DNA of 64,000 bases from NCBI GenBank assembly GCA_034722275.1, contig JAYENW010000001.1, positions 4,418 through 68,417 on the forward strand. Reading direction: 5' to 3'. The notes below the pieces were generated by a model, which saw only the letters and a list, made by a program, of their open reading frames with translations, did no database searches and had not been told where the DNA came from. Each line of letters opens with the position of its first letter. The first letter of the stretch is position 1. Made by a program: the position numbers and the translations under genes. This document shows, one piece after another, positions 43,046 through 63,327 of this stretch. This stretch comes from Chloroflexota bacterium (lineage in GTDB: Bacteria > Chloroflexota > Dehalococcoidia > GIF9 > AB-539-J10).

Positions 43046-44770
43046 TCAAGACTTCTTCAGGGAGTTGCGCAATTTCTCAGTAGCTGCGGCATCCACTTTC
43101 ATGGTCTTGGGGTTGATGATGACACCATAGTCCTCTTTGGCTTTTTCAAGAGTCACATATTCACTGATAACATCGCTCTCCACGAATTCTGGCTCGCGCT
43201 CCAGAGGGTCTCCGTATCCTCCACCGCCGGCGGCATCAATGGTCACTACATCACCCGGTCCAAACTGTGTTAATCCATAGGGATCGCCAGGTTTATCATT
43301 CACCATGAAATGCCCTTTCATACTTGGTTTGCCGCCGAATAGACCTTCGGCGGGATAGCGATATCTTCCTGCCTGGATTCCCAGATTGACCGGCGGAGTG
43401 GGAGCATATTCATCGTCCGGTGCTCTGAATACGACTCGCCTTCCCAATCCTCCCTTCATCTTGCCTGCACCTCCTGAATCAGGAATGAGCTCTCTCCTTT
43501 CTACAATTAACGGAGTGTCACTTTCAAAGATTTCCACTGGTGTGTTAGCGCCATTGGCTGGGAAGATGACATCATAATAGCCATCATACTTGTGGCTGGC
43601 ACCCAAACCGCCACCTCTGATTATCACGCAATGCCAGGGGTTTCCATCATGACGCTTGCCATAAAAAACGTTCATAGCTGCTGGTGTACCACCGCTGCCC
43701 GCTATAACTTGGTTTGGCACCGCTGGAGACAATGCTCGATAAATCATCTCAGTCATGAAATGTCCTATTTGCATTCGAGCAGCAACAGCAGCGGGGAACT
43801 TGCAATTGACCACGGTCCCCTCAGGGGCCTTCAAGGTTATCGGTCGTGCCGCGCCATCATTGTTGGGCAACTCCGGGTCAAAGATACTCTTCATAGCCAT
43901 AAAGACATAGGCATAGGTGAAGTTGTAAACTACATTACCTCCCCAATCCACCTGAGGTGACGATCCAGCGAGGTCAACTATGATATCGCTTCCTTTCACC
44001 TCCACGGCCATTTTGATGTGTATATCTTCTTTTCCTTCGGGTTGTTCAATAATTCCCTCGTAAGGGTAAACGCCATCAGGTACTTTGGCAATGGAGTCCC
44101 TTATGCTTTTTTCCGTGCGCCCGATAATTTCATCGGCCAGGTCATCCAGGGTATCTAGTCCAGTATCTTCCAGCATCTCCGCTATCTTCTGTGCGCACAC
44201 ATGATTGGCTGCGATTTGCGAGCGAATATCACCGATGACCTCATCTGGCGTGCGAACGTTCCAGCGGATCATTTCAAAAACGGCTTCATTCGGGATGCCG
44301 CCGTCATAAAGTTTTACCAACGGAATAAACAAGCCATCTTCAAAGACATCATGATTGTCGGATGCTACTCGTCCACCTATATCTGAGTGGTGGAAGACAC
44401 ACGCTGTAAAAGCTACTACCTTATCCTTATAGAAAATTGGGCTCATTACACAGACGTCGTTGAGATGACCGGCAAGAAGCCAGGGATCGTTGGTGATGAA
44501 AATATCACCTGGCTTGTAACTTTCCAGGGGGAACTTACTAACGATATTCTTGATTCCTATTGCCATCGCCCCAGATTGCCCTGGTGTGGCAAGTGTTCCC
44601 TGGGCTAATTCTCGTCCTTTTTCATCGGTGAACATGCAGGTGTAATCGTGGGCATCACGCGTTAGGCTGGAAAATGCCGTCCGAGCTACAGACGCGTCAG
44701 ACTCATCCACGATGGAAATTAATCTGCGCCAGAGGATCTCCAGTGTTATAGGGTCAAATTTCTGCGTCAT
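43046..44770 (-). CDS. hyuB: Hydantoinase B/oxoprolinase family protein (HyuB/OplB-like)
   Basis: 574 aa, ...KPGDIFITNDPW... Hydantoinase_B family pattern; 2 nt after hyuA. Confidence 0.85.
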   Translation of the reverse strand: MTQKFDPITLEILWRRLISIVDESDASVARTAFSSLTRDAHDYTCMFTDEKGRELAQGTLATPGQSGAMAIGIKNIVSKFPLESYKPGDIFITNDPWLLAGHLNDVCVMSPIFYKDKVVAFTACVFHHSDIGGRVASDNHDVFEDGLFIPLVKLYDGGIPNEAVFEMIRWNVRTPDEVIGDIRSQIAANHVCAQKIAEMLEDTGLDTLDDLADEIIGRTEKSIRDSIAKVPDGVYPYEGIIEQPEGKEDIHIKMAVEVKGSDIIVDLAGSSPQVDWGGNVVYNFTYAYVFMAMKSIFDPELPNNDGAARPITLKAPEGTVVNCKFPAAVAARMQIGHFMTEMIYRALSPAVPNQVIAGSGGTPAAMNVFYGKRHDGNPWHCVIIRGGGLGASHKYDGYYDVIFPANGANTPVEIFESDTPLIVERRELIPDSGGAGKMKGGLGRRVVFRAPDDEYAPTPPVNLGIQAGRYRYPAEGLFGGKPSMKGHFMVNDKPGDPYGLTQFGPGDVVTIDAAGGGGYGDPLEREPEFVESDVISEYVTLEKAKEDYGVIINPKTMKVDAAATEKLRNSLKKS

Positions 44771-44772
44771 AT

Positions 44773-46866
44773 TTATACCTCCTTGAAGCTAATCCATACA
44801 AATCCATATTCGTCTACAGAAATAGAAGTATCTTCCCCGGCGATGACAGTTGATTCTCTTTCCTCGATAATAGCGGGGCCTTCGAATGTTGCTCCCGGGA
44901 AGAGGCTATAACGGTCGTACACAGTATAAGGGATATAGTCTTTGGCAAGTGGTGAATAAGCCGAACGCTGCCCTTTAATTGTATCGTTGAGAGAGGCTGC
45001 TTTCTTTGCGATTTTGGGTAATTGCAGGAGGCGACGCGGGAGGCTAACCCTTACTCTAAAGCTTACAAATTCCACCTGGGACTCGGGATAGGTTCTTCCG
45101 TACAGGTTCTTATATACCTCGTCAAAGCGATTGCGTACCTCTTCCCTTGTTATCTGGGAGAAGTCTTTTCTGGGAATGGAGACGCTGGTTTCCGAGCCTT
45201 GCCCTATGAAGCGCAGATCCAGCGACCTTTCGTATACAATATTTTCCTGGCCTCCAGTCCTTTCCAGAGTTCTGGCACCATCTGCTTCTATTTCCTGGAA
45301 TATTTTCTCGATTTCAGACAAGTCTGCATCTTCAAGACTGACCTTATGGCTTCTCACTAAATCGAAAGCTCTGGGAGCGGTGAAGAAACCCAGGGCTGAC
45401 CCCACACCAGCTATAGGTGGAACGAGAATCTTAGGGGCTCCCAGCTTCTTGGTTAATCCATAGGCGTGAACCGGGCCGGCTCCGCCAAAAGCGGCAATAG
45501 TGACGATCTTTGGGTTCCCTCCTTTTTCGGCGATGTGCGTCTTGGCTGCTGCAGCCATCGTCTCGTTGATGACGTCATGAATACCCCAGGCAGCCTGTGT
45601 GAGCGATACATCCAAGGGTTTGGCGATCTGTTCCTCGATGCCCTGCCTGGCTCCCTCCTTATCGAGCTTCATCTCTCCACCCAGGAAGTAGTTTTCATCC
45701 AGGTAGCCCAATATCAGGTCAGCATCAGTCACTCCAGGGCCTGTGCCGCCTCTGGCATAACAAATGGGGCCGGGGTCAGCTCCAGAGCTTTCCGGGCCTA
45801 CCTGCAGGGTTCCCATTTTGCTTATTTTGGCGATGCTGCCACCGCCAGCTCCAATCTCCATCAAGTCAACCACTGGCACCTGTATAGTGAGCCCACTTCC
45901 CTTCATAAACCTTTGCACACGGCCTACCTCAAAAGTTGGCACCACTCCAGCTACTCCTTTTTGAATCAGACAGGATTTGGCTGTGGTTCCTCCCATGTCA
46001 AAGCAGAAGATGTCTTTAATGTTGAACATTTTGCCATAGTACTGACCGGCAATAACTGCTGCTGTTGGCCCGGATTCAATAACTCTTACCGGGAACTCTT
46101 CAGCAGTCTCGGCTGAGGTAATTCCACCGCTAGCAAGCATAATAAAAAGCTTGCCTGTGGACCCCAGTGACTTTAGGCGATCATCTAGCTTGGCCAAATA
46201 TTTTCCCGTTAATGGTTTAACATAGGCATTGGTCGCTGTCGTGCTCGTTCTTTCGTATTCCCTTATCTGGGGCAGGACTTCATAAGAGATTGAAATGGAC
46301 ATGTCGGGTGCTTCTTTTAAGGTGATGTCCTTAAGCATAAGTTCATGAACAGGGTTCTCATAGGAATTTAAGAGGCAAACTGCTATCGAGTTAACCCCCA
46401 TATCAATTAATTTATGTACGATCTCTTTTGCTTCTTCTGGGTTCAATGGCTTCAGGACCGTGCCATCGCTGCGAAGTCTTTCATTTACTTCCAGGCGAAG
46501 TGGTCTCGGGATAAGTGGTACCGGGTACTCGGAAAAAATGTCATAAGGAGCATATCGTATTTCCCGTCCCAATTCCAGGATATCTCTAAATCCTTTGGTG
46601 GTAATTAAACCTGCTTTGGCCCCTTTCCTTTCGATGATGGCATTGATCACCAGAGTAGTGCCGTGTATCACTTCATCTAATTCCTCAACGAAGCCAGGGG
46701 TCTTCTTGGTTAATGCCACGACTCCTTCTTCCACGGCATCTGAGGGGTCTTTGGGAGTGGTTAAACACTTATGGATTTTTATTTCCCCGGTTTTATCATT
46801 TAGCAAGACGAAATCGGTGAAAGTGCCTCCAATGTCACACCCAAGCCGATAAATTTTATCAGACAT
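44773..46866 (-). CDS. hyuA: Hydantoinase A/oxoprolinase family protein (HyuA/OplA-like)
   Basis: 697 aa, N-terminal YRLGCDIGGTFTDFVL and internal DMGGTTAKS ASKHA motifs; AGGAGG RBS. Confidence 0.85.
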   Translation of the reverse strand: MSDKIYRLGCDIGGTFTDFVLLNDKTGEIKIHKCLTTPKDPSDAVEEGVVALTKKTPGFVEELDEVIHGTTLVINAIIERKGAKAGLITTKGFRDILELGREIRYAPYDIFSEYPVPLIPRPLRLEVNERLRSDGTVLKPLNPEEAKEIVHKLIDMGVNSIAVCLLNSYENPVHELMLKDITLKEAPDMSISISYEVLPQIREYERTSTTATNAYVKPLTGKYLAKLDDRLKSLGSTGKLFIMLASGGITSAETAEEFPVRVIESGPTAAVIAGQYYGKMFNIKDIFCFDMGGTTAKSCLIQKGVAGVVPTFEVGRVQRFMKGSGLTIQVPVVDLMEIGAGGGSIAKISKMGTLQVGPESSGADPGPICYARGGTGPGVTDADLILGYLDENYFLGGEMKLDKEGARQGIEEQIAKPLDVSLTQAAWGIHDVINETMAAAAKTHIAEKGGNPKIVTIAAFGGAGPVHAYGLTKKLGAPKILVPPIAGVGSALGFFTAPRAFDLVRSHKVSLEDADLSEIEKIFQEIEADGARTLERTGGQENIVYERSLDLRFIGQGSETSVSIPRKDFSQITREEVRNRFDEVYKNLYGRTYPESQVEFVSFRVRVSLPRRLLQLPKIAKKAASLNDTIKGQRSAYSPLAKDYIPYTVYDRYSLFPGATFEGPAIIEERESTVIAGEDTSISVDEYGFVWISFKEV

Positions 46867-46960
46867 ATTCGCCTCCTGTTGTTATTGTTTTTTTAGCAAA
46901 GGTAGTAAGTTTACGAATTTTGCCAGGTCTTTGTCAAACACTCTGCGTTCCTCTTCTAGC

Positions 46961-48781
46961 TTAATCATAGATGGTCTTACATTCCAGTAACCTTACTGGT
47001 ATCCTCACCTCCCTTTCTATATCAAGATATACTCTTCCGGTCAGGTCTCTTGCCCAGTTTCCTAAAGTGAAAGGCGATGATGGTATTATTATTAAATCGG
47101 GCTCGGGTTGCCGCTTCAGGTAGTTTTTAATGTGGTCAATGAAGTCTTGAACTACAAGGAGATCACCCATGAATACATTGCCACCGAAATAATTATTCCG
47201 AGGAACCTCAATGTTTATTCTGAGTTCACTTGAGCTGAATAAATGGGATTCTCTGAGACACTGCTCAAACGTCGGCTTCATCAATTCAGAGGAAAGGAAA
47301 AGAATATTCCTGGCCTTCTCTTTGTCTATTATCTCCTTTAGCCTCTCAATGTAACTCAACCTTAGTCCGGTGTCCATGAAGATTACTCCGAGGTGCCGAT
47401 CAAATTCTCTGGAGAAGGGATAGTCGGAGTTATCTAAATCTACTGTCAGGTCAATTTCTTGGCTTTCCCTCTGGACGGTGAAACTAGCTGTTTTTTGCGT
47501 GCTCCTTTGTAACATATAAAGCATGTCTCTGGCTTGTGGTCTTGTCTTTATCTGGATGTTATTTATTCTACTGATAATGTCCCCCCTTTTAAAGCCGCTG
47601 CGAGCGACGGGAGAATTCCTGACTAATCCTATTATTCTCGGTAAGTTCTTGCACTTTTCATACAAATTTTCCTCATACATGCTGGGCATGGCTACAACAG
47701 GACATTCTATTTCTTCCCTCAATTGTCTTATGATGGAAATGCAGGCTTCCCAGACCTCGTCTAGGTCAAAAATTTCTTGAGATGAAAACCATTTGGAATA
47801 GCCGGGGAGATTAACCTCAATGAGATGTGCGCCACAATTATCGGCGTAGATTGCCGTTTTGTGGAAGTCTTGACACATCTCATTTATTGAATCCACAGGC
47901 CAGGGAACGATAACGATGGCATAGGGGATACCTTTGTCCTGTAATAATTTTGGGGCAGAAATAGCGATGTCAGGTTCGTTGTCCCTCATCAAATTTTTGC
48001 GACGCTCAGGAGATGAGCTATTTAAGGAAAGATAGATATATATCGGCTTGAGATTTACCAGCTCGCTTATTGTCTCGGGCGTTAGATTCTTGCCATTGGT
48101 GGTTATTCTTAGCGGGCTTGAAGTTCTTTCCCTCAAAGAGCAGAGAATTTCTCTGAAATGGGGATGAGCTAGGAAATCGTAACTTAGAGGTGGGTTGGGG
48201 AAAAGGCTCATACCTTTATCAGGAGAGAAGTAGCGGAGCCTTGTTTTAATTTCATCGCGTTCATCTTTGGCAGTCCTTTTTGGGTGTCTTAAACCGAGAG
48301 ACGACGGATTCCCCTTATTGTAACAAAAGGCGCAGTCACAATTACACCGAGATGCGGCATATTCCAAGATCTCACTGGGGTCGCAAGCATCAGGAATAAG
48401 CCAATCAGAAAGATTTTTTAATTTGAACCCGTCAACGTGGATGACCTCTCCTTTGCTTTCCAGCTCTACAACGGATAACAGGCCTTCAAGTTGTCTCTTG
48501 ATGAATTCTATTCTTGGTTCATATATAGAAGTGCTATCTGAGAGAGGTGATGAGCAACCTTCTCTAGGATATCTCAGGTCATGTACAGATATCCTGTCTG
48601 AGAGCAGTTTGAACCCATCAGGGTCTGTCTCTCTGTTGTTCTTTGTCAGGATGATGAGGTCTAACAGGTTTTGCAGTTGGTTTCTGACCAGTTCTAAGAG
48701 AGCATCATTGTACGGCTGCTCTTTTTTTTCTTGTAGTTCATAATGGAAGTCATGTTCTCTCATTGAACTAATAAAGCTCAT
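46961..48781 (-). CDS. Radical SAM protein with internal PDZ-like domain (unusual architecture)
   Basis: 606 aa; CNCDCAFC (CX3CX2C) at ~res 148-155; PDZ-like GLVRNSPVARSGFKRGDIISRINNIQI ~res 385-415; extra N- and C-terminal regions. Confidence 0.7.
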   Translation of the reverse strand: MSFISSMREHDFHYELQEKKEQPYNDALLELVRNQLQNLLDLIILTKNNRETDPDGFKLLSDRISVHDLRYPREGCSSPLSDSTSIYEPRIEFIKRQLEGLLSVVELESKGEVIHVDGFKLKNLSDWLIPDACDPSEILEYAASRCNCDCAFCYNKGNPSSLGLRHPKRTAKDERDEIKTRLRYFSPDKGMSLFPNPPLSYDFLAHPHFREILCSLRERTSSPLRITTNGKNLTPETISELVNLKPIYIYLSLNSSSPERRKNLMRDNEPDIAISAPKLLQDKGIPYAIVIVPWPVDSINEMCQDFHKTAIYADNCGAHLIEVNLPGYSKWFSSQEIFDLDEVWEACISIIRQLREEIECPVVAMPSMYEENLYEKCKNLPRIIGLVRNSPVARSGFKRGDIISRINNIQIKTRPQARDMLYMLQRSTQKTASFTVQRESQEIDLTVDLDNSDYPFSREFDRHLGVIFMDTGLRLSYIERLKEIIDKEKARNILFLSSELMKPTFEQCLRESHLFSSSELRINIEVPRNNYFGGNVFMGDLLVVQDFIDHIKNYLKRQPEPDLIIIPSSPFTLGNWARDLTGRVYLDIEREVRIPVRLLECKTIYD

Positions 48782-48793
48782 AAGAAGCTGCGT

Positions 48794-49795
48794 TTAGGTG
48801 GCTAGCAAAGCTTTGCATTTCTCGATCAAGGCAGGTATAGCTTGCTTGTAATCACCAACTAAACCGAAATCAGCTTCCTTGAAAATGTGGGCATCGGGGT
48901 CTTTATTTATGGCTACGATATGCTTTGAACCAGAGCATCCAGCCATATGTTGTACTGCCCCTGAAATGCCCACCGCAATATAGAGATCGGGCCCTACAAT
49001 GCGACCGGTTTGTCCAATTTCCAACGTCATCGGCATCCATCCTTCATCACAGGGGACTCTGGTTACTCCCACGGTGCCGCCAAGTACATGGGCCAATTCC
49101 TGTAGCATTTCAAATCCTTCAGTGCCACCGATGCCTCCACCACCGGATATAATAACTTTGGCATCCTCGAGCTTTATACCCGCGACCTCCTCTTTCACTG
49201 TTTCCACGAGTTTGCCTTTAATCGAGGAGTCTTTTACCTCTACAGTAAAGGACTCAATCTGACCTTTCCTGGAGGTGTCTGGCTCAGCAGGTGCCACTGA
49301 CCTTGGTCTCATGGTAATTATCTGAGGTTGACAGGATTCGGAGGCCCATACTGCCAGAGCATTGCCACCGTAAACTGGCCGTGTTTGCAGCAGCAGTTTG
49401 CTCTCTGAGTCTATAACCAAGTCAACGCAATCCATAGCTGCTGTAGTTTTCAACCTCGCTGCCAGCCTGGGTGCAATATCACGTCCTATGTCAGTCTGAC
49501 CTAAAAGAACGATGGATGGCAGCAATTGATCACAGGCGCCGGTAATCATAGCAACATAGAGATCAGGATGGGAATTGGCAAAGGTGGGGCCATCAATTAT
49601 ATATACTTTGTCAGCACCGAGGGCAATAACTTCCTTGGCTTCTTCTTCGATATTCTTTCCGATAAGTAAGGCCTTCAGTGGTTGTCCCAGGCTATTGCCT
49701 AGTTTCCTGCCCACACTTAATAATTCTCTGGTAATGGCGGCAATCTTTCCATCCACAACCTCCCCACAGATTAATATGCCATTGTATTCAGCCAT
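48794..49795 (-). CDS. etfA: Electron transfer flavoprotein alpha subunit
   Basis: 333 aa, C-terminal FAD domain ...PDLYIAVGISGAVQHMAG... Confidence 0.9.
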   Translation of the reverse strand: MAEYNGILICGEVVDGKIAAITRELLSVGRKLGNSLGQPLKALLIGKNIEEEAKEVIALGADKVYIIDGPTFANSHPDLYVAMITGACDQLLPSIVLLGQTDIGRDIAPRLAARLKTTAAMDCVDLVIDSESKLLLQTRPVYGGNALAVWASESCQPQIITMRPRSVAPAEPDTSRKGQIESFTVEVKDSSIKGKLVETVKEEVAGIKLEDAKVIISGGGGIGGTEGFEMLQELAHVLGGTVGVTRVPCDEGWMPMTLEIGQTGRIVGPDLYIAVGISGAVQHMAGCSGSKHIVAINKDPDAHIFKEADFGLVGDYKQAIPALIEKCKALLAT

Positions 49796-49817
49796 TAAAT
49801 TACCTCCTTAGCGTGAT

Positions 49818-50630: not shown

Positions 50631-50909
50631 CTATCCGTACTGATAGCATATGCCAAATCCAGGTCTTGGTAGAGTCCAGTCAATGGCTCCTTTATCACAT
50701 GCAATGTGACAACTGCCGCATTCCAGGCAGCCTTCATAAGAGAAGGTAATGTGTCCTTCACTCAGTTTGTAGCAGTTGGCAGGACAAACATATAGACATA
50801 CATGTTCTTGACAGGATTTGCAAATGTCCTCGTTTATCTTGATATGGACATCTTTGTCTATATCGAACTTATTAACTGATAATTTATCTTCGATGCTGAT
50901 AGTACTCAT
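50631..50909 (-). CDS. fixX: Ferredoxin-like protein FixX
   Basis: 92 aa, CKSCQEHVCLYVCP and CLECGSCHIAC cysteine motifs. Confidence 0.85.
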   Translation of the reverse strand: MSTISIEDKLSVNKFDIDKDVHIKINEDICKSCQEHVCLYVCPANCYKLSEGHITFSYEGCLECGSCHIACDKGAIDWTLPRPGFGICYQYG

Positions 50910-55618: not shown

Positions 55619-57121
55619 TTAAGTCTTCATTGTCCCTTTTCCTGCTAACCTTTGGTGGAAATCAAAGGCCTTGCTCAATATGTGTGGTTCATGTCCTCCT
55701 TTAACCTCAGCTTCGTGGAAGTAATCCCATAAGAGTGGCTTGTAATCAGGGTGAGCACACTTTTCTATGATCTCTTTGGCTCGCTCTCTGGGATCCAAAC
55801 CTCTGAGATCTGCTAAACCTTGCTCAGTTACTACAGCGCTTACTTCGTGTTCTGTATGGTCAACATGGGAAACCATGGGAACTATGGCAGAAATAGCACC
55901 TTTTCTAGCTGTGGAAGGGCTCATGAATATGGAGAGGTACCCATTTCTGGAAAACTCTATAGAGCCGGCTACACCTGTCATGATGTGTGTCCCGCTCACA
56001 TGGCTGCTGTTTATGTGTCCGTAAATGTCCATCTCTATGGCGGTGTTTAATGCAATTACCCCCAATCTGCGAATTACCTCAGGGCTATTGACTATATCTA
56101 TGGGCCTGAGGATGATCTTTTCCTTATATCTTTCCACGTTCTTCACGAGTTTTTGTAAAGCTTCGTCTGTGAAGAAAAGTCCTACGCCATCGGCGGCTCT
56201 TATCTTACCGCTGTCGATAAGATCGAGCACACCATCATCTATCAAAGCTGAGTGTACCTCCAAATTTTCGAATTTTGATTGCTCAAGCTCGCTGAGGATA
56301 GCTCCTCCCAGTGCTCCCAAACCTGTCTGGAAGGGAAGGAGGTTTTCAGGCAACCTCTTGGCTTGCACTTCCTGTTCAAAGAAACTGACTATGTTCTTGG
56401 CTATTGTTCTGCTTATCTCGTCTATAGTAGCCCTGCCGGAAGGGTTTGTTTTCTTATAGGAAACAATGATTCCCTTAACCTTTTCTGGGGCTACTTCCAT
56501 ATATGGCGTTCCAATCCTATCACTCACGCTGTTCAGAGGAATGGGTTTTCTATTTGGTGGAGAATCCGGGATATAGATATCGTGCATGCCACTTAATTCC
56601 AGAGGCATGTTCAGGTTAATCTCAACAATGACATTATCCGCATATCGTAAAAATGTGGCTTCGTCACCAACGTTGATGGTAGGAACAACGTACCCTTGAT
56701 CGGTTATCTCTACTGCCTCAACGACGGCAAAATCCAGCTTGCCCAGAGAACCTTTCCTTACTTCGAGGGGAACCCAGGCGGCTCCCATATCGGCATAATG
56801 AATCTCTCCCTTGTTGGCCGCCTTAGCCAAAACAGGATTCGCTTGATGGGCAAGTCTCCTATTAAGCATACCAGTCTCTGCTAATTTACCATCGACTTCG
56901 GGGCTCAATGGAGCGCAGGACCAGAGGTCTACTTTGAATCTTTCACCCTGCTCTGCTCGTCTGGTGAGTGCTTCAAAAAATGAGATGGGACAGCCAGCGG
57001 TGGGTGTCCCACAAGTTCCAATGCGCATTCCATTTTCCACGAATTTTGCTGCTTCCTCAGCAGATAATATCTTTTCTCTTAGTGGTTCGAATTTAATTCT
57101 TTCTTTTACCGATTCGTCCAT
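55619..57121 (-). CDS. Acetyl-CoA hydrolase/transferase family CoA-transferase (succinyl-CoA:acetate / propionyl-CoA:succinate type)
   Basis: 500 aa, two-domain AcetylCoA_hydro pattern. Confidence 0.75.
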   Translation of the reverse strand: MDESVKERIKFEPLREKILSAEEAAKFVENGMRIGTCGTPTAGCPISFFEALTRRAEQGERFKVDLWSCAPLSPEVDGKLAETGMLNRRLAHQANPVLAKAANKGEIHYADMGAAWVPLEVRKGSLGKLDFAVVEAVEITDQGYVVPTINVGDEATFLRYADNVIVEINLNMPLELSGMHDIYIPDSPPNRKPIPLNSVSDRIGTPYMEVAPEKVKGIIVSYKKTNPSGRATIDEISRTIAKNIVSFFEQEVQAKRLPENLLPFQTGLGALGGAILSELEQSKFENLEVHSALIDDGVLDLIDSGKIRAADGVGLFFTDEALQKLVKNVERYKEKIILRPIDIVNSPEVIRRLGVIALNTAIEMDIYGHINSSHVSGTHIMTGVAGSIEFSRNGYLSIFMSPSTARKGAISAIVPMVSHVDHTEHEVSAVVTEQGLADLRGLDPRERAKEIIEKCAHPDYKPLLWDYFHEAEVKGGHEPHILSKAFDFHQRLAGKGTMKT

Positions 57122-57123
57122 TT

Positions 57124-58011
57124 CTACCTTCTTGATTTCTTCAAAGCTTCTTTAGCCAGAGAGGCTACCTCTTTCGCTGTTTTGGCTACTGGCACCCCGG
57201 CTTTCTCTAGGGCTTTCACCTTAGAATCATATGAGCCTCTTCCTCCAGTGATAATAGCTCCAGCATGGCCCATGATCTTGCCTGGAGGTGCTGTCCTTCC
57301 GGCTATAATTGCCACTACCGGCTTGGAAATATCGCTCTGGATATACTCTGCTGCCTCTTCTTCACTGGTGCGGCCAATCTCACCAATAAGCACGATTACC
57401 TTTGTCTCTGGGTCTTGCTCGTATAATTTCAAGATATCCACAAAATTACTGCCTGTAACTGGATCTCCTCCTATCCCTAGTGAAGAAGTTTCCCCTAGGC
57501 CGGCTCTAGTAATCTCGTCGCCAACCTGATAGGAAAAAGTTCCACTGCGGGATACTATGCCCACTGGTCCTTTGCGATAAATATCGCCCGGGAAATACCC
57601 CATGGAGCATTCTTCAGCGCTGATTATTCCTGGGGAGTTAGGACCTATTAAAGTTGTGTTTGTTCCTTCCAATGCCTGCTTCACCAGCATCATGTCCTTA
57701 ACAGGCATCCGCTCCACTGCAACCACGATCACTTTAAGTTCGGCTTCTAAAGCCTCAAAGATCGCTTCTTTAACGAAAGCGGGAGGGACAAATAGAATCG
57801 AGGCATCAATCTGGTGAGAATTTACCGCCTCTCTCACTGTATTGTAGATGGGAACCCCCATGGTTTCGCTGCCGCCTTTGCCGGGAGTGATTCCAGCTAC
57901 TACTTTGGTGCCGTATTCCATCATTCTCTCTGTAGCAAAGTTACCCAGCTTCCCTGTGATTCCTTGGGCAAGTACTTTGGTGTCTTTATTTATCAGAATA
58001 CTCATTTTCAT
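57124..58011 (-). CDS. sucD: Succinyl-CoA synthetase alpha subunit
   Basis: 295 aa, CoA-binding ...VLAQGITGKLG...; catalytic His loop MGHAGAII. Confidence 0.9.
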   Translation of the reverse strand: MKMSILINKDTKVLAQGITGKLGNFATERMMEYGTKVVAGITPGKGGSETMGVPIYNTVREAVNSHQIDASILFVPPAFVKEAIFEALEAELKVIVVAVERMPVKDMMLVKQALEGTNTTLIGPNSPGIISAEECSMGYFPGDIYRKGPVGIVSRSGTFSYQVGDEITRAGLGETSSLGIGGDPVTGSNFVDILKLYEQDPETKVIVLIGEIGRTSEEEAAEYIQSDISKPVVAIIAGRTAPPGKIMGHAGAIITGGRGSYDSKVKALEKAGVPVAKTAKEVASLAKEALKKSRR

Positions 58012-59153
58012 TGTCCTCCCAGTTCGATTACTTTATGCACTGCATCCTCAACTTCCGCTTCGAGATGCAGGTAAGGAGATTTAGAGGCTGATAATATTTT
58101 CATTCCCTCTTTATTATAGCGGCCATGGAGGGTAGCTACTATGGGAACGCGCAAGCTTTTTTCCTTCTCCATCTCGTCGAGAGCTTCTATGATACCACTG
58201 GCAATGACATCACATCTCGGCCCTCCGGCAAATATGTAAATTAACAGTGCGGTCACATTGTGATTTTCCAGAACAATCTTGATACCATTTTTGATGGTGA
58301 CTGCCTGCGTTGCCTGTCCTCCCAAATCCAGAAAGTTGGCTGGGCTGCTGCCGTACTCCCGCATGAAGTCCATGGCTGCCATGGTAAGTCCGGCACCATT
58401 GCTTATTATGCCAATATTCCCATCCAGTAATACATAACTCAGCCCCAGTTCAGCAGCGCGCTCTTCGATATTTTTAGCTGGTCTTTTAGGAAGCTCAGGG
58501 TGTCTGGGAAGTCCACTATTATCGATATTGAATTTAGCGTCAGCGGCGACAACTTTTCCTTCATTTGTTACCACCAAGGGATTAATTTCAATGAGTTCTC
58601 CGTCCATATCCCAGTAGGTTTGATAGAGCCGCCGCGCTACATTAATAATCCCGTTGTGAAGTTCCTTGGGAAGTCCTGCTTCCTGAAGCTCGAATTGAAG
58701 CTGATAACCGAATAACCCATATCTAGGATCGATAAGAACCCTTTTGATAGCCGCGGGTTTCTGTGAGGCTAAATCTTCAATCTCCATTCCTCCTTCAGCG
58801 CTGAACATCAGAAGAGGGCAGCCTTCGTCGGGGTCAGTTATAATACCAAGATAGTATTCTCGCTTTATATCGAGGGCTTTCTCTACCAATATTTTCTCTA
58901 CGGGAACCCCCTTTATCTGCATGCGGAACAATTGCCCTGCCATTTCATAGGCTTCCTTTTCTGATTTGGGGAATTTTATGCCACCTGCCTTGCCTCTACC
59001 TCCTACAAGAACTTGGGATTTGAGTACCACATTTCCCCCCAAATCGCTATAGGCCTTTCTTGCTTCCTCTGCTGTCTGAGCAACCACTCCTTCTGGTACT
59101 GGAATTCCTGCTTTTCGGAAAAACCCTTTCGCTTCAAATTCGAGCAATTTCAT
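58008..59153 (-). CDS. sucC: Succinyl-CoA synthetase beta subunit (ATP-grasp)
   Basis: 381 aa, MKLLEFEAKGFFRKAGIPVPEG ATP-grasp N-terminus; 4-nt overlap with sucD. Confidence 0.9.
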   Translation of the reverse strand: MKLLEFEAKGFFRKAGIPVPEGVVAQTAEEARKAYSDLGGNVVLKSQVLVGGRGKAGGIKFPKSEKEAYEMAGQLFRMQIKGVPVEKILVEKALDIKREYYLGIITDPDEGCPLLMFSAEGGMEIEDLASQKPAAIKRVLIDPRYGLFGYQLQFELQEAGLPKELHNGIINVARRLYQTYWDMDGELIEINPLVVTNEGKVVAADAKFNIDNSGLPRHPELPKRPAKNIEERAAELGLSYVLLDGNIGIISNGAGLTMAAMDFMREYGSSPANFLDLGGQATQAVTIKNGIKIVLENHNVTALLIYIFAGGPRCDVIASGIIEALDEMEKEKSLRVPIVATLHGRYNKEGMKILSASKSPYLHLEAEVEDAVHKVIELGGQ

Positions 59154-59233
59154 GCTAACCTCCGTTTATCGCGTGAGCAGATCACAAATAATATTTCGTA
59201 ATGAGAAACATCCTGATTTCAAAATGTAATCAT

Positions 59234-59629
59234 CTAGGACTTGACATTCTGCTGAATATAATCTGCTACTTCTTTAATCGTTGACCCTTGGTCAAAGACC
59301 TCGTGTATTCCTTTCTCTTTCAAAAAAGGGACATCTTCATCCGGGATATTGCCGCCAGCCATGAATAAGACCTTATTCAGCCCCTTTTTCTTGGCCAACT
59401 CAACTACTCTGGGAAGGAGTTCCTTATGCGCTCCCGAGAGGATACTCATGCCTATCGCATCCGCCTTTTCCTTGATGGCCCGCTCCACTATTTCTTCCGG
59501 GGTTTTCCGCAGCCCGGTGTAGACGACATCCATCCCTTCATCTCTCAAACCCAGGGTCAGAACCCTCGCTCCACGCTCATGACCATCCAGTCCTGGCTTG
59601 GCAATGAGAACTTTTATCTTTTCTTTCAT
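59234..59629 (-). CDS. B12-binding domain protein (methylmalonyl-CoA mutase small/C-terminal-domain subunit)
   Basis: 131 aa, KVLIAKPGLDGHERGARV DxHxxG cobalamin-binding motif. Confidence 0.8.
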   Translation of the reverse strand: MKEKIKVLIAKPGLDGHERGARVLTLGLRDEGMDVVYTGLRKTPEEIVERAIKEKADAIGMSILSGAHKELLPRVVELAKKKGLNKVLFMAGGNIPDEDVPFLKEKGIHEVFDQGSTIKEVADYIQQNVKS

Positions 59630-59647
59630 GATACCTCCTCAATCTTT

Positions 59648-61954
59648 CTAGCCTGATTTTTCCTTGAGAGCTTTAAGGATTTTCTCTGGTGTTGCCGGCA
59701 GGTCCTTTATCCACACTCCGATGGCATCGTGGATGGCGTTGCCTATAGCTGGAGCGATGCCAACAAGGCCTGGCTCGCCAACCCCTTTAGCTCCGAAGGG
59801 GCCTTTAGGATCAGGCTTGTCAATAATTATTATTTTGGTATTCTCGGGCATATCCATGGTTCCCGGCATCTTGTAGGTAGTAAAGTTGTCGCTTTCCACA
59901 GCACCGGTATTCTTGTTAATGACATAATCCTCAGTTAAACCATAGCCTATGCCTTGTTGTACCCCTCCTTCGCATTGTCCTTCCACAGTCATTGGATTTA
60001 TCGCTTTACCACAGTCCACAGCCGTTATGAAGTTTAATACCTTCACCTCACCAGTCTCGGTATCCACTTCTACCTCAGCAAAATAAGCTGCTGTTGGTAT
60101 CGAATTATAATGAGAGGCCCAGGAGGATTTTCCTGATATGTTCAGAGATTCTCCCTTTAAATTCCAGATAGATTGAAAACATACGTCGGCCACAGAAGTC
60201 TTCTTTTCCGGGTTCGATTTCACATAAATTTGTCTGTCCTTGATATCTAAATCATCGGGTGATTCTGACAGCATCTTGCCTGCTCGCTCCAGAAGCTGCC
60301 TTTTAGCCTGTCGTGCTGCCTCCAGAACCGCGTTCCCGGTGACATAGGTTGACCGACTGGCATGGGAGCCAAGGTCGAACATGGTCTTATCTGTTTCACC
60401 GGTAACTATATAGATATCTTCAGCAGGAATTCCGAGTTCCTCAGCAGCAATTTGTGAGAGCGTGCCCCAGATATGAGTGCCAGGAGAACCTGGGTTTACC
60501 GTCAAGTCAGCCGTGCCATCCTCGTTAAACTTTATGAAGGCATTGGAGTGCTCTATGAGCAATGGCCAAGCACCACTGCAATGTGTCATAGTGGCCATGC
60601 CTACACCTCGTTTTAGTGTTCCTTTTCCACCTTTGTTCTTGCCCAGCTTTTCGTTCCAGCCTATAGCCTTGGCGCCCTCTCCAATACAGTCATCTATGTA
60701 GCTGCTCTCGATAGGAAGCCCCATATTAGCCATTTCACCAGTGTGCTTGGTATTCTTCAACCTGATTTCCACAGGGTCCATTCCTAGTTTTTCTGCTGCC
60801 ATATCCACCACCTCTTCCACACCCCACATTATCGCTGGATTTCCGAAACCTCGACCAGCGCCTGCCACTGTGGTATTGGTGTAGATAACATCACATGACC
60901 CATTCATATTGGGGCAATGGTAGTGTCCCAAAGCCCAGATAAGGGTGATGCCACCGGCCAACTGGGCACGGCTTAAGTAGCCTCCAGCCCAAGTTGTAAC
61001 ATCTACCGTCATGGCATTGAGTGTGCCATCTTCCTTAAAGCCCATCTTTACGGTGTAATAATGCGGCGTTCTGGTATCAATGGTGGTGAAGTCCTCTTCC
61101 TTAGAGTACACTAGCTTCACCGGCTTATGCACTTTCATCGCCAGCGCAATGCAAATAGGCTCGTTGTGACAGCTTAGTCGGCAGCCAAAGCTGCCGCCAA
61201 CAAAGGGATTAACCACATTTATCTTGCCCACGGGTATGTTGAACATCTTCCCCAGTTCCCTCCTGAAGGGATGGGCTAGCTGACAGGGACTGTAACAGGT
61301 CACCTTCCCGCTACTGTCAACGCTGGTGACACATGACTGCGTTTCCATCTGGCAAGCCACCTGTTTTGAGGCGAAAAATTTCTCCTCTACTACGACATCA
61401 GATTCGGTAAAGCCCTTTTCCACATTCCCTTTAACTAGAAAAGGAGGAGGAGTAAGATGCACTGCGATGTTATTCTTAGCGTAATCATGCATCAGAGGAG
61501 CACCGGGTTTCACGGCTTCGAAAGGGTCGAGCACGAAAGGCAATTGCTCATACTCCACTTCAATCAGGTCCAATGCTTCTTCAGCAGTTTTCTCATCCAC
61601 GGCTGCTACAGCAGCTATGGGATCCCCAACGTAGCGCGCTTTGTCAGCGAGAATATACTCATCAGCATGCTGCAGAGCCCCGCTGGGAGCCATAGGCATG
61701 TCACGAAAAGAACGGGCCCAGAGTATTTTAGGCGTGTCTTCTACTGTAATCACAGTAGCTACTCCTGAGAGTTTTTCGGCTTTGGATTTGTCTATTTTCT
61801 TGATTTTGGCATGAGGATAAGGGCTATGAAGCACTTTCCCCCAGAGCATTCCTGGTAATCTCACGTCGGGCACATATCTTGCCTCTCCCGTAGCTTTAAG
61901 CACCACATCTTTCTGGGTAATTCGTTTCCCTACACAAGTGAGTTCCTGGCTCAT
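59648..61954 (-). CDS. Xanthine dehydrogenase-family molybdopterin-binding large subunit (CoxL/HcrA-like; not a bona fide CO dehydrogenase)
   Basis: 768 aa; GGSFGCR Mo-cofactor loop, C-terminal QCEGGVQQGIGYGLTED; CODH active-site loop AYRCSFR/AYRGAGR absent. Confidence 0.85.
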   Translation of the reverse strand: MSQELTCVGKRITQKDVVLKATGEARYVPDVRLPGMLWGKVLHSPYPHAKIKKIDKSKAEKLSGVATVITVEDTPKILWARSFRDMPMAPSGALQHADEYILADKARYVGDPIAAVAAVDEKTAEEALDLIEVEYEQLPFVLDPFEAVKPGAPLMHDYAKNNIAVHLTPPPFLVKGNVEKGFTESDVVVEEKFFASKQVACQMETQSCVTSVDSSGKVTCYSPCQLAHPFRRELGKMFNIPVGKINVVNPFVGGSFGCRLSCHNEPICIALAMKVHKPVKLVYSKEEDFTTIDTRTPHYYTVKMGFKEDGTLNAMTVDVTTWAGGYLSRAQLAGGITLIWALGHYHCPNMNGSCDVIYTNTTVAGAGRGFGNPAIMWGVEEVVDMAAEKLGMDPVEIRLKNTKHTGEMANMGLPIESSYIDDCIGEGAKAIGWNEKLGKNKGGKGTLKRGVGMATMTHCSGAWPLLIEHSNAFIKFNEDGTADLTVNPGSPGTHIWGTLSQIAAEELGIPAEDIYIVTGETDKTMFDLGSHASRSTYVTGNAVLEAARQAKRQLLERAGKMLSESPDDLDIKDRQIYVKSNPEKKTSVADVCFQSIWNLKGESLNISGKSSWASHYNSIPTAAYFAEVEVDTETGEVKVLNFITAVDCGKAINPMTVEGQCEGGVQQGIGYGLTEDYVINKNTGAVESDNFTTYKMPGTMDMPENTKIIIIDKPDPKGPFGAKGVGEPGLVGIAPAIGNAIHDAIGVWIKDLPATPEKILKALKEKSG

Positions 61955-61955
61955 G

Positions 61956-62438
61956 TCATTTACCTCCTTCGTTCATTTCCTTGGCTGCGGCCAACACAGC
62001 GTCAATTATCTTGACATAGCCCGTACATCTACACAGATTACCGGCCAGGTATGCTTTGACCTCTTCCCTGGTGGGATTTGGGTTTTCATCTAGCAAGGCT
62101 TTGGCTGTAAGAATCATTCCTGGTGTGCAAAAGCCGCATTGTATAGCACCGTGTTCTATAAAAGCTTTTTGGATGGGGTGTAACTCGCCACCCTTGGCTA
62201 AACCCTCTATGGTGAGAATGTTCTTGTCTTTGGCGGTTATAGCTAGGGTACAGCAAGAGAGCATAGGTTTGCCCTCAATTAAGACGGTACAAGCCCCGCA
62301 TTCACCAGCTCCACAGCTGAATTTTGTCCCGGTAAGGTCCAGTTGCTCTCTCAAAACCTCATTCAACGTCATCTGTGGTTCTACGGCTACTTCGTATGGT
62401 GTACCATTTATGGTGAAATTTATGATTTCTTTTTTCAT
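61956..62438 (-). CDS. (2Fe-2S)-binding small subunit of XDH-family hydroxylase
   Basis: 160 aa, CGAGECGACTV and CGFCTPG/LCRCTGY motifs. Confidence 0.9.
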   Translation of the reverse strand: MKKEIINFTINGTPYEVAVEPQMTLNEVLREQLDLTGTKFSCGAGECGACTVLIEGKPMLSCCTLAITAKDKNILTIEGLAKGGELHPIQKAFIEHGAIQCGFCTPGMILTAKALLDENPNPTREEVKAYLAGNLCRCTGYVKIIDAVLAAAKEMNEGGK

Positions 62439-62454
62439 GATGCTACCTCCTTAC

Positions 62455-63327
62455 CTATGCCTTCGCTCTTTCCAGCGCTTTCTCTAATACGCGTTTCACC
62501 AACACTCTGGTTGTTTCCTTTCTATACTCGGCTGTTGAGCGAAGGTCAGTTATCGGCTTCGCCTCCCCCGCTGCCGTTTCAGCAGCCTTTTCGATCAGTT
62601 TCTGATCGAGCTTCTGTCCCTTTAGCATTCCCTCTGCTTTTTTAGCTCTGAATACCGTGGGAGCCACGGAGCCAACGGCTATCCGAACTTCTTTACAGGT
62701 GTCATCTGTTATGGTTAATGTTGCTGCCGCGTTAACCTTGGCGATATCAGCCACTGTTCTCACCAGCTTTAGAAATGCCCCGCCTGTTTTGGCTGGGAGT
62801 TTTGGCAACAATATTTCGGTTATTATTTCGTTTGTTTGCAAAACGGTTTGCCCCACTCCAGTATAAAAGTTCTCGATGGGCACTGTCTTCTCAACGGAAG
62901 GAGCAGCCACCCTAAATTTAGCATCTAAAACAAATAAAGCTGGTGCCACATCTGATGCCGGCGTAGCTACACACAAGTTACCTACAGCGGTACCCTGTGT
63001 CTTTACCTGGATTGAGGCTATGCTGTGGATGGCTTCACTTAGCACCATGTAGTTTTTCTTAACCAGTGGTGAAAGCTCTATAGAGCGCAGGGAAGATAAG
63101 GCGCCGATACTCAAGCCTTCGGCATTTTCCTTAATTGCATCCAGTCCTTTAATTTGTTGAATGTTTACCATATATTTTGGATGGATTTGACGTTTTCGCA
63201 TTCTGGGTACTAAATCCACACCAGCGGCATATGCCTTTGCTTTTGTGCCATATTTGGATAAAGTCTCCGTAGCCTCTTCTATGGTTTTTGGCTCAAAGTA
63301 CTCGAATGGTTTTAGTGTTCTAAACAT
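62455..63327 (-). CDS. FAD-binding medium subunit of XDH-family hydroxylase (CoxM-like)
   Basis: 290 aa, FAD_binding_5/CO_deh_flav_C pattern. Confidence 0.85.
   Translation of the reverse strand: MFRTLKPFEYFEPKTIEEATETLSKYGTKAKAYAAGVDLVPRMRKRQIHPKYMVNIQQIKGLDAIKENAEGLSIGALSSLRSIELSPLVKKNYMVLSEAIHSIASIQVKTQGTAVGNLCVATPASDVAPALFVLDAKFRVAAPSVEKTVPIENFYTGVGQTVLQTNEIITEILLPKLPAKTGGAFLKLVRTVADIAKVNAAATLTITDDTCKEVRIAVGSVAPTVFRAKKAEGMLKGQKLDQKLIEKAAETAAGEAKPITDLRSTAEYRKETTRVLVKRVLEKALERAKA

Follow-up and report, generated by a model that had tools for sequence, protein, structure and literature searches.

A 17-gene array in a Dehalococcoidia-related Chloroflexota genome, read as a composite of a molybdenum-hydroxylase module and an acyl-CoA mutase module

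The nicotinate fermentation cluster of Eubacterium barkeri, reportedly described by Alhapel et al. in 2006, unites in one anaerobic catabolic cluster a molybdenum (Mo) hydroxylase of the xanthine dehydrogenase (XDH) family with a product of lactam type, a hydrolase that opens the cyclic amide and a mutase that rearranges the carbon skeleton with B12. It is the nearest conceptual precedent for an idea raised about a 64,000-nucleotide stretch of DNA from a Chloroflexota bacterium (assembly GCA_034722275.1, contig JAYENW010000001.1; the whole stretch is called the window here). A sequence-only reading of this window had proposed that 17 co-directional genes form one regulon that hydroxylates and opens an N-heterocycle and then carries the carbon skeleton through CoA esters and a B12 rearrangement to succinyl-CoA. 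The E. barkeri pathway differs from such a scheme as it runs on free acids without CoA esters, and its mutase acts on 2-methyleneglutarate rather than on an acyl-CoA. For ring opening it uses an amidohydrolase, enamidase, whereas the window has HyuAB. Moreover, SucCD, the acyl-CoA dehydrogenase (ACAD), Etf, FixCX and the radical S-adenosylmethionine (SAM) enzyme, all in the window, are missing from the E. barkeri cluster, and in the window a link between the modules is a proposal.

Each part of the array also has described counterparts of its own. Operons of succinate and propionate metabolism, such as E. coli sbm-ygfDGH/scpABC and the canonical loci of Propionigenium, Veillonella, Phascolarctobacterium (L031, L039, L064), Fusibacter and syntrophs, likewise join an ScpC-type CoA-transferase or SucCD to a split mutase, a B12 subunit and an epimerase. 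In contrast to them, the window has neither MeaB/ArgK nor a decarboxylase, its mutase is about 40% identical to theirs and carries a Gly-rich insertion, and ACAD, Etf, FixCX and radical SAM genes are appended. N-methylhydantoinase (7hk5) and the caprolactamase CapAB (6yra) have the two-subunit architecture of HyuA/HyuB and are their best sequence matches. Bcd-EtfAB/CarCDE, EtfABCX of T. maritima (7koe) and E. coli caiA-fixABCX resemble the window in having a Bcd-like ACAD beside bifurcating-type EtfBA and FixC/FixX, whereas here an acyl-CoA mutase operon holds these genes, ordered ACAD-fixC-fixX-etfB-etfA, and bifurcation is a prediction. The DUF512/Mmp10 enzymes (9cg1, 9cg2, 7qbs) share with the radical SAM protein a CxxxCxxC core, a C-terminal Rossmann-like domain and a PDZ domain, and 4-hydroxybenzoyl-CoA reductase (4-HBCR; 1rm6) shares the three-subunit organization of the Mo enzyme and has the nearest solved Mo subunit. 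The literature search returned nothing relevant for this combination of modules or for the pairing of a Mo-hydroxylase with a hydantoinase/oxoprolinase. The locus is a new arrangement of known enzyme kinds, with two orphan clades (Mo-hydroxylase and mutase) and a DUF512-type radical SAM enzyme in context.

Two modules in one array

On balance, the array is read as composite: two modules with separate evolutionary histories are taken to have been joined, in this Chloroflexota lineage, as one or two transcription units. The first module (M1) comprises the Mo-hydroxylase and HyuAB, and the second (M2) the acyl-CoA genes lying between them. Genes and promoter-like sites are as follows, in the order of transcription.

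63486..63457 and 63370..63342, minus strand: two promoter-like sites upstream of the FAD-subunit gene (consensus scan, pattern match only)
62455..63327, minus strand: FAD subunit of the XDH-family Mo-hydroxylase, CoxM-like, 290 aa, M1 (Pfam FAD_binding_5, CO_deh_flav_C)
61956..62438, minus strand: 2x[2Fe-2S] subunit, 160 aa, M1 (Pfam Fer2, Fer2_2)
59648..61954, minus strand: molybdopterin subunit, orphan clade, 768 aa, M1 (Pfam Ald_Xan_dh_C, MoCoBD_1/2)
59234..59629, minus strand: B12-binding small subunit of a split acyl-CoA mutase, 131 aa, M2 (Pfam B12-binding; TIGR00640)
58008..59153, minus strand: SucC, succinate-CoA ligase beta subunit, M2 (NF001913)
57124..58011, minus strand: SucD, succinate-CoA ligase alpha subunit, M2 (NF004230)
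55619..57121, minus strand: ScpC/YgfH-type succinyl-CoA CoA-transferase, 500 aa, M2 (NF053853; Pfam AcetylCoA_hydro, AcetylCoA_hyd_C)
53854..55602, minus strand: large (catalytic) subunit of a divergent acyl-CoA mutase subclade, 582 aa, M2 (Pfam MM_CoA_mutase, E = 2.5e-129)
53403..53804, minus strand: methylmalonyl-CoA epimerase, 133 aa, M2 (TIGR03081; Pfam Glyoxalase_4)
52207..53364, minus strand: short-chain Bcd-like ACAD, 385 aa, M2 (four ACAD Pfam domains, all present)
50906..52195, minus strand: FixC/Etf-quinone-oxidoreductase-like flavoprotein, M2 (Pfam ETFQO_UQ-bd; NF007450 below cut-off)
50631..50909, minus strand: FixX-like ferredoxin, 92 aa, M2 (NF011993 below cut-off; weak Fer4 matches)
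49818..50624, minus strand: EtfB, bifurcating-type, M2 (best solved matches from bifurcating complexes)
48794..49795, minus strand: EtfA, M2 (Pfam ETF, ETF_alpha)
46961..48781, minus strand: radical SAM-PDZ-DUF512-like enzyme of cobalamin type, 606 aa, M2 (Pfam Radical_SAM, PDZ_2)
46908..46937, minus strand: promoter-like site TTGACA-18-TAAACT, 10/12 matches, in the gap between the radical SAM gene and hyuA (consensus scan, pattern match only)
44773..46866, minus strand: HyuA, alpha subunit of an ATP-dependent hydantoinase/lactamase, 697 aa, M1 (Pfam Hydant_A_N, Hydantoinase_A, Hydant_A_C)
43046..44770, minus strand: HyuB, beta subunit, 574 aa, M1 (Pfam Hydantoinase_B, E = 1e-146)

The table of open reading frames (ORFs) contains this minus-strand run of 17 ORFs from 63327 down to 43046, exactly at the coordinates of the sequence-only reading. 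From the FAD-subunit gene to hyuB, the successive gaps measure 16, 1, 18, 80, -4, 2, 16, 49, 38, 11, -4, 6, 22, 12, 94 and 2 nt. The widest gap is 94 nt, in agreement with the earlier figure of at most about 95 nt, whereas the "several" 4-nt overlaps do exist but are only two, one of them between fixC and fixX. A GGAGG ribosome-binding site stands ahead of most of the 17 genes, and no terminator-like hairpin was found in the intergenic gaps of the array. All 17 domain assignments were recovered with Pfam and with NCBIfam, which upholds the gene identities first proposed. The curated equivalog cut-offs of NCBIfam are cleared by SucC, SucD, the ScpC-type CoA-transferase and the methylmalonyl-CoA epimerase; the Mo-enzyme subunits, ACAD, FixC/FixX, EtfAB and HyuAB are clear family members, all below function-specific cut-offs. 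The start of fixC probably lies 9 codons downstream of the ORF start (420 aa in the public gene call), and the radical SAM protein probably starts at Met7, its homologues being 600 aa.

In this compact genome, co-directionality alone is unremarkable, 42 of the 51 other genes of the window (82%) lying on the minus strand and 78% of the same-strand gaps there being of 95 nt or less. These figures suit the improbable view that the array is pure accident, a compact and strand-biased genome having brought together housekeeping units independent of one another, namely propionate/succinate metabolism, beta-oxidation, an orphan oxidoreductase and a repair enzyme of the 5-oxoprolinase type. Core-gene flanks (ribosomal operon, pantothenate genes, PFK, FBPase, dnaN), a GC content like that of the rest of the window and the absence of any regulator gene inside the cluster point the same way. 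However, accident does not account for the contiguous Mo-HyuAB operon of relatives, which makes at least M1 a functional unit, nor for the 12-gene order of M2, kept at 69-80% identity, and the insertion of M2 into M1 without terminators implies tolerated co-expression. The unbroken short-gap run over 20 kb suggests one or two transcription units. The site in the widest gap is a possible internal promoter for hyuAB, and the two sites upstream of the FAD-subunit gene are candidate promoters of the cluster.

The partition into two modules is drawn from related contigs (designated by L numbers), in which two ARRANGEMENTS of orthologues occur, type I and type II. Type I, with the order FAD-FeS-Mo-[B12-sucCD-CoA-transferase-mutase-epimerase-ACAD-fixCX-etfBA-radical SAM]-hyuAB, is carried by the window, by L088 (96% identity) and by L002/L003 (Mo subunit 79%). 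Type II, carried by L116/L123, L124, L090 and L089, has a contiguous FAD-FeS-Mo-HyuA-HyuB operon, and M2, ending in the radical SAM gene, lies convergent to it a few kb away; identities are 70-72% for the Mo subunit, 77% for HyuA, 74% for HyuB and 69-70% for the radical SAM enzyme. Between hyuB and M2 stand a convergent pyrK/pyrD pair, a 225-aa gene and a FadB-like gene, followed by the acyl-CoA block of 11-12 genes. Since the type II operon is contiguous, Mo-hydroxylase and HyuAB constitute one unit and the CoA genes another. Thus, the pairing of Mo-hydroxylase with HyuAB assumed in the sequence-only reading is borne out, and in the lineage of the window M2 is placed between the two halves of M1.

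The same comparison answers the question of neighbourhood conservation in two ways, as M1 and M2 are each conserved but are neighbours in one lineage only. M2-like blocks are found without M1, and the Mo clade at 60-70% identity is never with M2 elsewhere. Moreover, a TudS-like gene (PF04463, 2-thiouracil desulfurase family) stays near the cluster in both arrangements (39013-39468, minus strand, in the window; L123:2652-3098; 68% identity). As this gene is also syntenic, the proximity of M1 and M2 is explained no better by selection than by shared descent. With the two modules linked in one lineage only, and with unrelated syntenic neighbours, one regulon or one pathway is still a hypothesis.

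One dedicated pathway, although possible, is doubtful. In this model, an N-heterocycle, for example thymine degraded via 5-methylbarbiturate to methylmalonate, would be hydroxylated and opened by HyuAB; the resulting acid would be activated by the CoA-transferase or SucCD, epimerized and rearranged to succinyl-CoA, with ACAD electrons passing to EtfAB-FixCX. It benefits from the type I layout, in which M2 is separated from Mo by only 18 nt and from hyuA by only 94 nt, no terminator intervenes and co-transcription is nearly unavoidable, and from the fact that M1 and M2 are still neighbours in the rearranged type II genomes. The lack of a carboxylase or decarboxylase would fit entry as a free dicarboxylate (methylmalonate, succinate) rather than as propionyl-CoA, and an archaeal Mo orthologue (65%) also adjoins sucDC. 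Besides the separate occurrence of the modules and the possibly inherited proximity of the whole region, the promoter-like site ahead of hyuA speaks against the model. M1 and M2 are co-located and, in type I, almost certainly co-transcribed; that the product of M1 feeds M2 is a weaker proposition, with somewhat less than an even chance.

Nothing points to thymine itself, which the sequence-only reading had named as a candidate. The thymine scheme gives no role to ACAD/Etf/FixCX and the radical SAM enzyme, and ureidomalonase and urea-handling genes are missing from the cluster. A pyrimidine link through the DHO_dh neighbour of hyuB in relatives (L116) was rejected, as this protein passes the equivalog of biosynthetic PyrD (389 bits vs 269) and has a PyrK partner, hence a housekeeping function. 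The PreA-like genes of a Bacillota locus, considered for the same purpose, were uninformative, being below cut-off and beside PyrE/PyrF and a glycyl-radical enzyme.

The Mo-hydroxylase and HyuAB

In the composite reading, M1 would hydroxylate, with water, an sp2 carbon adjacent to the ring nitrogen of an N-heterocyclic, probably carboxylated, compound, its electrons passing via 2Fe-2S and FAD. The resulting cyclic amide would then be opened by the ATP-dependent HyuAB.

The three subunits display the domain set of the XDH/carbon monoxide dehydrogenase family with Pfam scores all far above gathering scores. The Mo subunit contains the motif GVGEPG (KGVGEPG) and retains the catalytic Glu, which we take to correspond to bovine Glu1261 from the motif GxGE and not from a structural alignment. 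It reads GGSFGCR where xanthine dehydrogenases have GGGFGGKE, and the xanthine-specific Glu (Glu802) is missing. Its best NCBIfam match, XdhA, reaches 629 bits against a cut-off of 780, and PucD 410 against 784. The Mo-hydroxylase belongs to an orphan clade.

HyuAB is assigned by its scores against solved structures to the ATP-dependent lactamase/hydantoinase branch and not to the acetone/acetophenone carboxylase branch. HyuA matches N-methylhydantoinase (7hk5) with 385 bits and caprolactamase (6yra) with 367, vs 306/245 for the carboxylases, and the corresponding values for HyuB are 224 and 187 vs 100/70. The view of HyuAB as an opener of cyclic amides is thereby strengthened, whereas both subunits stay far under the caprolactamase equivalog cut-offs (CapA 543 and CapB 244 bits, each vs 1000).

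The best evidence for hydroxylation next to nitrogen followed by opening of a cyclic amide comes from the recurrence of hydrolase candidates beside the Mo clade, which supports this order of events. Indeed, three non-homologous candidate ring-hydrolases adjoin the clade across phyla, namely HyuAB in L123, an amidohydrolase like D-hydantoinase/dihydropyrimidinase in L122 and, in L004, a DUF6282 protein also matching the phosphotriesterase family, which is part of the amidohydrolase superfamily. Genes for proline-racemase-like and Asp/Glu/hydantoin-racemase proteins and for a TRAP transporter share the operon of the Mo genes in L122 and L125-127, and hint at an amino-acid-derived heterocyclic carboxylate as the substrate of M1. 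A plasmid search for annotated HyuB homologues adjoining Mo-hydroxylases returned only Proteobacteria at about 40% identity and was uninformative.

The neighbourhoods of the clade are themselves diverse. In L122, a Desulfatiglandales-type contig, and in L125-L127, a proline-racemase-like gene is followed by FAD-FeS-Mo; TRAP DctPQM, a TIGR04076-family gene and an Asp/Glu/hydantoin racemase come next in L125-L127, while the Mo genes of L122 adjoin the D-hydantoinase-like amidohydrolase and shell proteins of a bacterial microcompartment (BMC). A Bacillota metagenome-assembled genome (MAG; GCA_050952425.1, L004/L005) has a 70%-identical Mo-hydroxylase in a PucR-regulated cluster with a uracil-type permease. 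Its Mo neighbours are a glycyl-radical enzyme with its activase, the DUF6282 protein, two PreA-like proteins and PucR; the glycyl-radical enzyme is indoleacetate-decarboxylase-like, and the cluster looks like an undescribed anaerobic heterocycle pathway. In a Hecatellales archaeon, the Mo orthologue (65%) adjoins sucDC and Mo-cofactor genes, and at another locus of the clade the neighbours are aconitase and Mo-cofactor genes.

XDH-family dehydroxylases occur in anaerobes (PMC12658268), and this is one point in favour of a quite unlikely alternative in which the Mo enzyme would be a CoA-ester reductive dehydroxylase of the 4-HBCR or urolithin-dehydroxylase kind, with SucCD or the CoA-transferase supplying the CoA ester, or else an aldehyde oxidoreductase turning, for example, (methyl)malonate or succinate semialdehyde into the acid. 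The closest solved structure to the Mo subunit is 4-HBCR alpha (1rm6, 346 bits), the best NCBIfam matches of the FAD and FeS subunits are archaeal glyceraldehyde dehydrogenase subunits, and sucCD-like genes adjoin the Mo genes both in the window and in an archaeon. However, every equivalog cut-off is missed by a wide margin; the three 4-HBCR subunit models score 506 vs 995 (TIGR03194), 116 vs 405 and 192 vs 258 bits, and the FAD subunit passes no NCBIfam equivalog at all. The FAD subunit also has only 2 Cys in its 290 residues and lacks the 4-Cys [4Fe-4S] insertion that defines 4-HBCR beta; the Mo enzyme is therefore not 4-HBCR. For an aldehyde oxidase, the recurrent cyclic-amide hydrolase candidates beside the clade are hard to account for.

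The acyl-CoA block and its radical SAM enzyme

For M2, the composite reading supposes that the B12 subunit, SucCD, the CoA-transferase, the mutase and the epimerase would convert succinate, succinyl-CoA and (R/S)-methylmalonyl-CoA, or a closely similar dicarboxylyl-CoA, into one another, SucCD supplying substrate-level ATP and the Bcd-like ACAD being wired to a bifurcating-type EtfAB and FixCX. The substrate is probably, by default, methylmalonyl-CoA, with a related dicarboxylyl-CoA as a live alternative. The methylmalonyl-CoA reading of these middle genes gains from their equivalog scores, as SucC reaches 395 bits for a cut-off of 370 (NF001913), SucD 394.5 for 336 (NF004230) and the CoA-transferase 604 for 500 (NF053853, ScpC; the subfamily model TIGR03458 gives 618, below 659). 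The epimerase passes marginally (TIGR03081, 115.1 bits vs 114.95). The B12 subunit reaches 147 bits vs 57 (TIGR00640) and carries DGHERG (DxHxxG), the base-off/His-on motif.

The large subunit of the mutase is the divergent member of the set. Against solved structures it scores 339 bits with HcmA and 278 with human methylmalonyl-CoA mutase (MCM), whereas the canonical split MCM of Propionigenium, taken for comparison, scores 570 with HcmA, 517 with human MCM and 295 with IcmF. Among NCBIfam models it passes only the subfamily-domain one. It is 100% identical to a protein of a "Chloroflexota bacterium" metagenome-assembled genome in NCBI, and its nearest relatives come from Dehalococcoidia genomes of the same kind. 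It belongs to a divergent, Dehalococcoidia-centred subclade, an orphan clade. The residues Tyr89, Arg207 and His244 (P. shermanii numbering) are kept as Y94, R217 and H254 and are invariant in the subclade, and a His (His253) occupies the Tyr243 position, which is variable across the subclade. A 14-residue Gly-rich insertion is present, and the CoA-binding MYxxRxWTxRQ before Tyr89 is replaced by PGxxPxxGGGHxxxGGGLVRAGR. Over residues ~66-93, the Gly-rich PGxxPxxGGGHxxxGGGLVRAGRYSGYGT is nearly invariant in the subclade, where it replaces the CoA-phosphate-binding stretch of MCM and of hydroxyisobutyryl-CoA mutase (HCM).

HCM has Ile90, Asp117 and Gln208, and isobutyryl-CoA mutase (ICM) Phe80 and Gln198, in place of Tyr89 and Arg207. 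In the alignment, the mutase of the window has Tyr, Ala and Arg at these positions, and so lacks the residues of HCM and of ICM. Hydroxyisobutyryl-CoA mutase, considered on the ground that HcmA is the closest structure, was rejected as HCM-specific residues are missing and the canonical MCM of Propionigenium is also closest to HcmA. Likewise, the C-terminal tail of the mutase was dismissed as a ligand of the PDZ domain, for subclade and canonical mutases alike end in hydrophobic residues and give no signal.

The remodelled mutase is one argument for another reading of M2, an unlikely one, by which it would handle a C5 or branched dicarboxylyl-CoA. In its C5 version, a reversed ethylmalonyl-CoA segment would lead from mesaconyl- or itaconyl-CoA to methylsuccinyl-CoA (ACAD/Etf working reductively) and on to ethylmalonyl-CoA (mutase, epimerase). 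The strong divergence from every characterized MCM, the His at the variable Tyr243 position and the altered CoA-binding stretch fit this version, as does the company of the mutase or radical SAM genes elsewhere, which includes PrpD/MmgE paralogues, family-III CoA-transferases, enoyl-CoA hydratases, TRAP or Tct di-/tricarboxylate transporters and Na+-decarboxylase subunits. Mutase-ACAD-epimerase triplets also recur in Dehalococcoidia (L019, L040, L118). On the other hand, SucC, SucD, ScpC and epimerase pass succinate/methylmalonyl-specific equivalogs, and the window has no PrpD, family-III transferase or hydratase. Methylsuccinyl-CoA dehydrogenase is of an extended ACAD type, whereas the ACAD of the window is a plain 385-aa Bcd-like enzyme. 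The conserved Arg207 and Tyr89 suit any 2-carboxy-acyl-CoA and do not discriminate between the methylmalonyl-CoA and C5 readings.

The closest solved structures to the ACAD are Bcd of A. fermentans (4l1f), Bcd of C. difficile (5ol2_C) and CarC, and its best NCBIfam match, AcrC, gives 350 bits, below the cut-off of 640. FixC reaches 411 bits, below 466 (NF007450), its public gene call carrying ETF-QO_FixC_C, and FixX 64.6, below 166 (NF011993). The best solved matches of EtfB all come from bifurcating complexes (CarD 6fah_B, 4kpu_B, 5ol2_B, 7koe_A and LctB), non-bifurcating Etfs scoring about half as high. At the level of homology, this supports a bifurcating-type (group 2) EtfAB with adjacent FixC and FixX, and the "possibly bifurcating" mode of the sequence-only reading finds backing. 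In L091 (radical SAM enzyme 68% identical), the order is ACAD-etfB-etfA-radical SAM with no fixC/fixX between; FixCX is therefore dispensable in some lineages.

The radical SAM-PDZ protein had been treated as a bystander beside hyuAB, which its neighbourhoods contradict. Its gene ends acyl-CoA operons across about 20 loci, with a subclade mutase within 10 kb in ~12/20, an enoyl-CoA hydratase directly upstream in ~11/20 and Na+-decarboxylase subunits in ~8/20, and hyuAB follow it only in the window and in the 96% relative L088. Judging from these neighbours, it belongs with the mutase and acyl-CoA genes, not with HyuAB. The family is small and confined to Chloroflexota/Dehalococcoidia. In L097 and L110, three PrpD/MmgE paralogues and an OYE-type enoate reductase precede the homologue in place of a mutase.

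The motif C146-x3-C150-x2-C153 (CxxxCxxC) is invariant in 43 sequences, and Pfam Radical_SAM and PDZ_2 pass, whereas DUF512 gives 22.9 bits, below the gathering score of 25; PF04459 is annotated in some homologues. No sequence-level PDB match was found outside the PDZ domain. With an AF2 model (pLDDT 79.8), the three best Foldseek matches in the PDB are pfDUF512 (9cg2, E = 3.9e-10), csDUF512 (9cg1, 4e-9) and Mmp10 (7qbs, 9e-7), with TM(target) values of 0.48 to 0.60. The modelled protein thus has the fold of the DUF512/Mmp10 cobalamin-dependent radical SAM enzymes. N-terminal to its radical SAM core, the model also displays a pair of small alpha/beta units resembling each other (~residues 27-60 and 89-121). 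Experiments have established that DUF512 binds cobalamin, and the radical SAM enzymes that contain this domain are probably methylases (PMC11659888). Cobalamin binding and methyl transfer have been shown only for four other DUF512 proteins (PMC11659888). Mmp10, shown to contain such a domain (PMC11659888), is the sole enzyme of the type with a known physiological substrate. Unlike these enzymes, the family of the window occurs only in Chloroflexota, within acyl-CoA and mutase operons, and its order is radical SAM-PDZ-DUF512-like after two small N-terminal repeats, whereas csDUF512 has PDZ-radical SAM-DUF512.

By analogy, its most likely identity is that of a cobalamin-dependent radical methylase, with a protein or CoA-ester of the M2 block as its target. 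Methylation of a protein, methylation of a CoA-ester and cofactor handling for the mutase are the candidate roles. Among the 17 cluster genes, Pfam assignments revealed no MeaB/ArgK. In relatives, MeaB lies near the subclade mutase, two genes away in L111 and at ~4 kb in L117. A role of the radical SAM enzyme as a stand-in for MeaB was rejected since MeaB is directly beside it in L117 and near it in L111. The subclade mutase of relatives is also found near epimerase, PrpD paralogues and family-III CoA-transferases, and it adjoins the OAD gamma, biotin-carrier and OAD beta decarboxylase subunits in L099, L093 and L098.

Several observations weigh against the composite reading or the functions it assigns. 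The mutase is about as far from MCM and HCM (278-339 bits) as ICM is from canonical MCM (295 bits), and its CoA-binding stretch is replaced, which leaves methylmalonyl-CoA specificity insecure. The cluster has no carboxylase, decarboxylase, transcarboxylase, MeaB or thiolase, and M2 alone makes up no complete known pathway. The link of the radical SAM enzyme with the mutase is statistical and non-obligate: a scan of GTDB genomes with the mutase profile returned mostly canonical MCMs and, among the matches listed, at least five subclade loci, the own genome of the window not being among them, and these loci have no radical SAM gene nearby. Housekeeping genes are often downstream of the radical SAM gene. 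Concerning M1, the Mo clade sits in differing neighbourhoods outside the lineage, and the enzyme with the closest solved Mo subunit, 4-HBCR, is a CoA-ester reductive dehydroxylase, so that hydroxylation of a free heterocycle is not the sole option.

Genomic setting and significance

The cluster lies in a core-genome region of an uncultured, Dehalococcoidia-related Chloroflexota MAG, surrounded by a ribosomal-protein operon and genes for EF-G, panBC with a pan motif, PFK, class V FBPase, dnaN, def and surE. With a GC content like that of the rest of the window, it is not an obvious island. The Rfam scan detected no riboswitch, cobalamin or other, at the cluster; its sole match in the window is the pan motif (RF01749, 44.9 bits, 27498-27580, minus strand), upstream of a DUF2520/Rossmann gene and panB/panC, and the 64 kb hold no tRNA gene.

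Upstream of the array, on the other strand, stands one further unit.

63632..63960, plus strand: divergent unit with a TTGACA-17-TATAAT promoter-like site (12/12 matches, 63632-63660), then a Phd-type antitoxin-like ORF (63697-63960)

The perfect sigma-70 consensus lies 37 nt upstream of the ORF, which matches phd_fam. Past the window on the same contig, a MocA-like Mo-cofactor cytidylyltransferase gene (142 bits for TIGR03310, cut-off 186) and a MoCF_biosynth gene lie beyond it. These divergent Mo-cofactor genes fit an enzyme using the molybdopterin cytosine dinucleotide (MCD) form of the cofactor. The Phd-type ORF overlaps the start of the MocA-like gene, an antitoxin-like gene at the head of a Mo-cofactor maturation operon being odd.

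Two other neighbours deserve mention. A class V FBPase (PF01950; 32752-33849, minus strand), of the bifunctional FBP aldolase/phosphatase type found in archaea and in bacteria that branch deeply, lies near PFK (36989-37957) and a DeoC/LacD-type aldolase (36018-36992). A 326-aa GTPase (40590-41570, minus strand) combines MMR_HSR1 with a C-terminal TGS domain, a DRG-like architecture commoner in archaea and eukaryotes, and passes no cut-off of bacterial Obg, Era or YchF.

Few uncultured heterotrophs of anoxic sediments are more abundant than Dehalococcoidia-related Chloroflexota, whose substrates are for the most part guesses based on annotation. All parts taken jointly, it is improbable but conceivable that the locus encodes an undescribed anaerobic route of sediment Dehalococcoidia, in which Mo-hydroxylase and HyuAB would open an amino-acid-derived N-heterocyclic carboxylate, CoA esters would pass through the new mutase subclade, the activity or maturation of the mutase would depend on the dedicated cobalamin-dependent radical SAM/PDZ enzyme, and redox balance would rest on bifurcating EtfAB-FixCX. 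In such a route, and by analogy with Mmp10 and its target methyl-coenzyme M reductase, the radical SAM/PDZ enzyme could be a post-translational methylase of the mutase or a partner enzyme.

The repeated pairing of an orphan Mo-hydroxylase clade with ring-opening hydrolases points to anaerobic, water-dependent degradation of N-heterocyclic carboxylates. If the modules prove unrelated, long co-directional arrays in compact, strand-biased genomes are not readable as single pathways. For one branch of the DUF512 cobalamin-dependent radical SAM enzymes, the locus provides genomic context for the first time. As for the divergent mutase subclade, methylmalonyl-CoA specificity is not to be assumed, which affects every "propionate pathway" call in these genomes.

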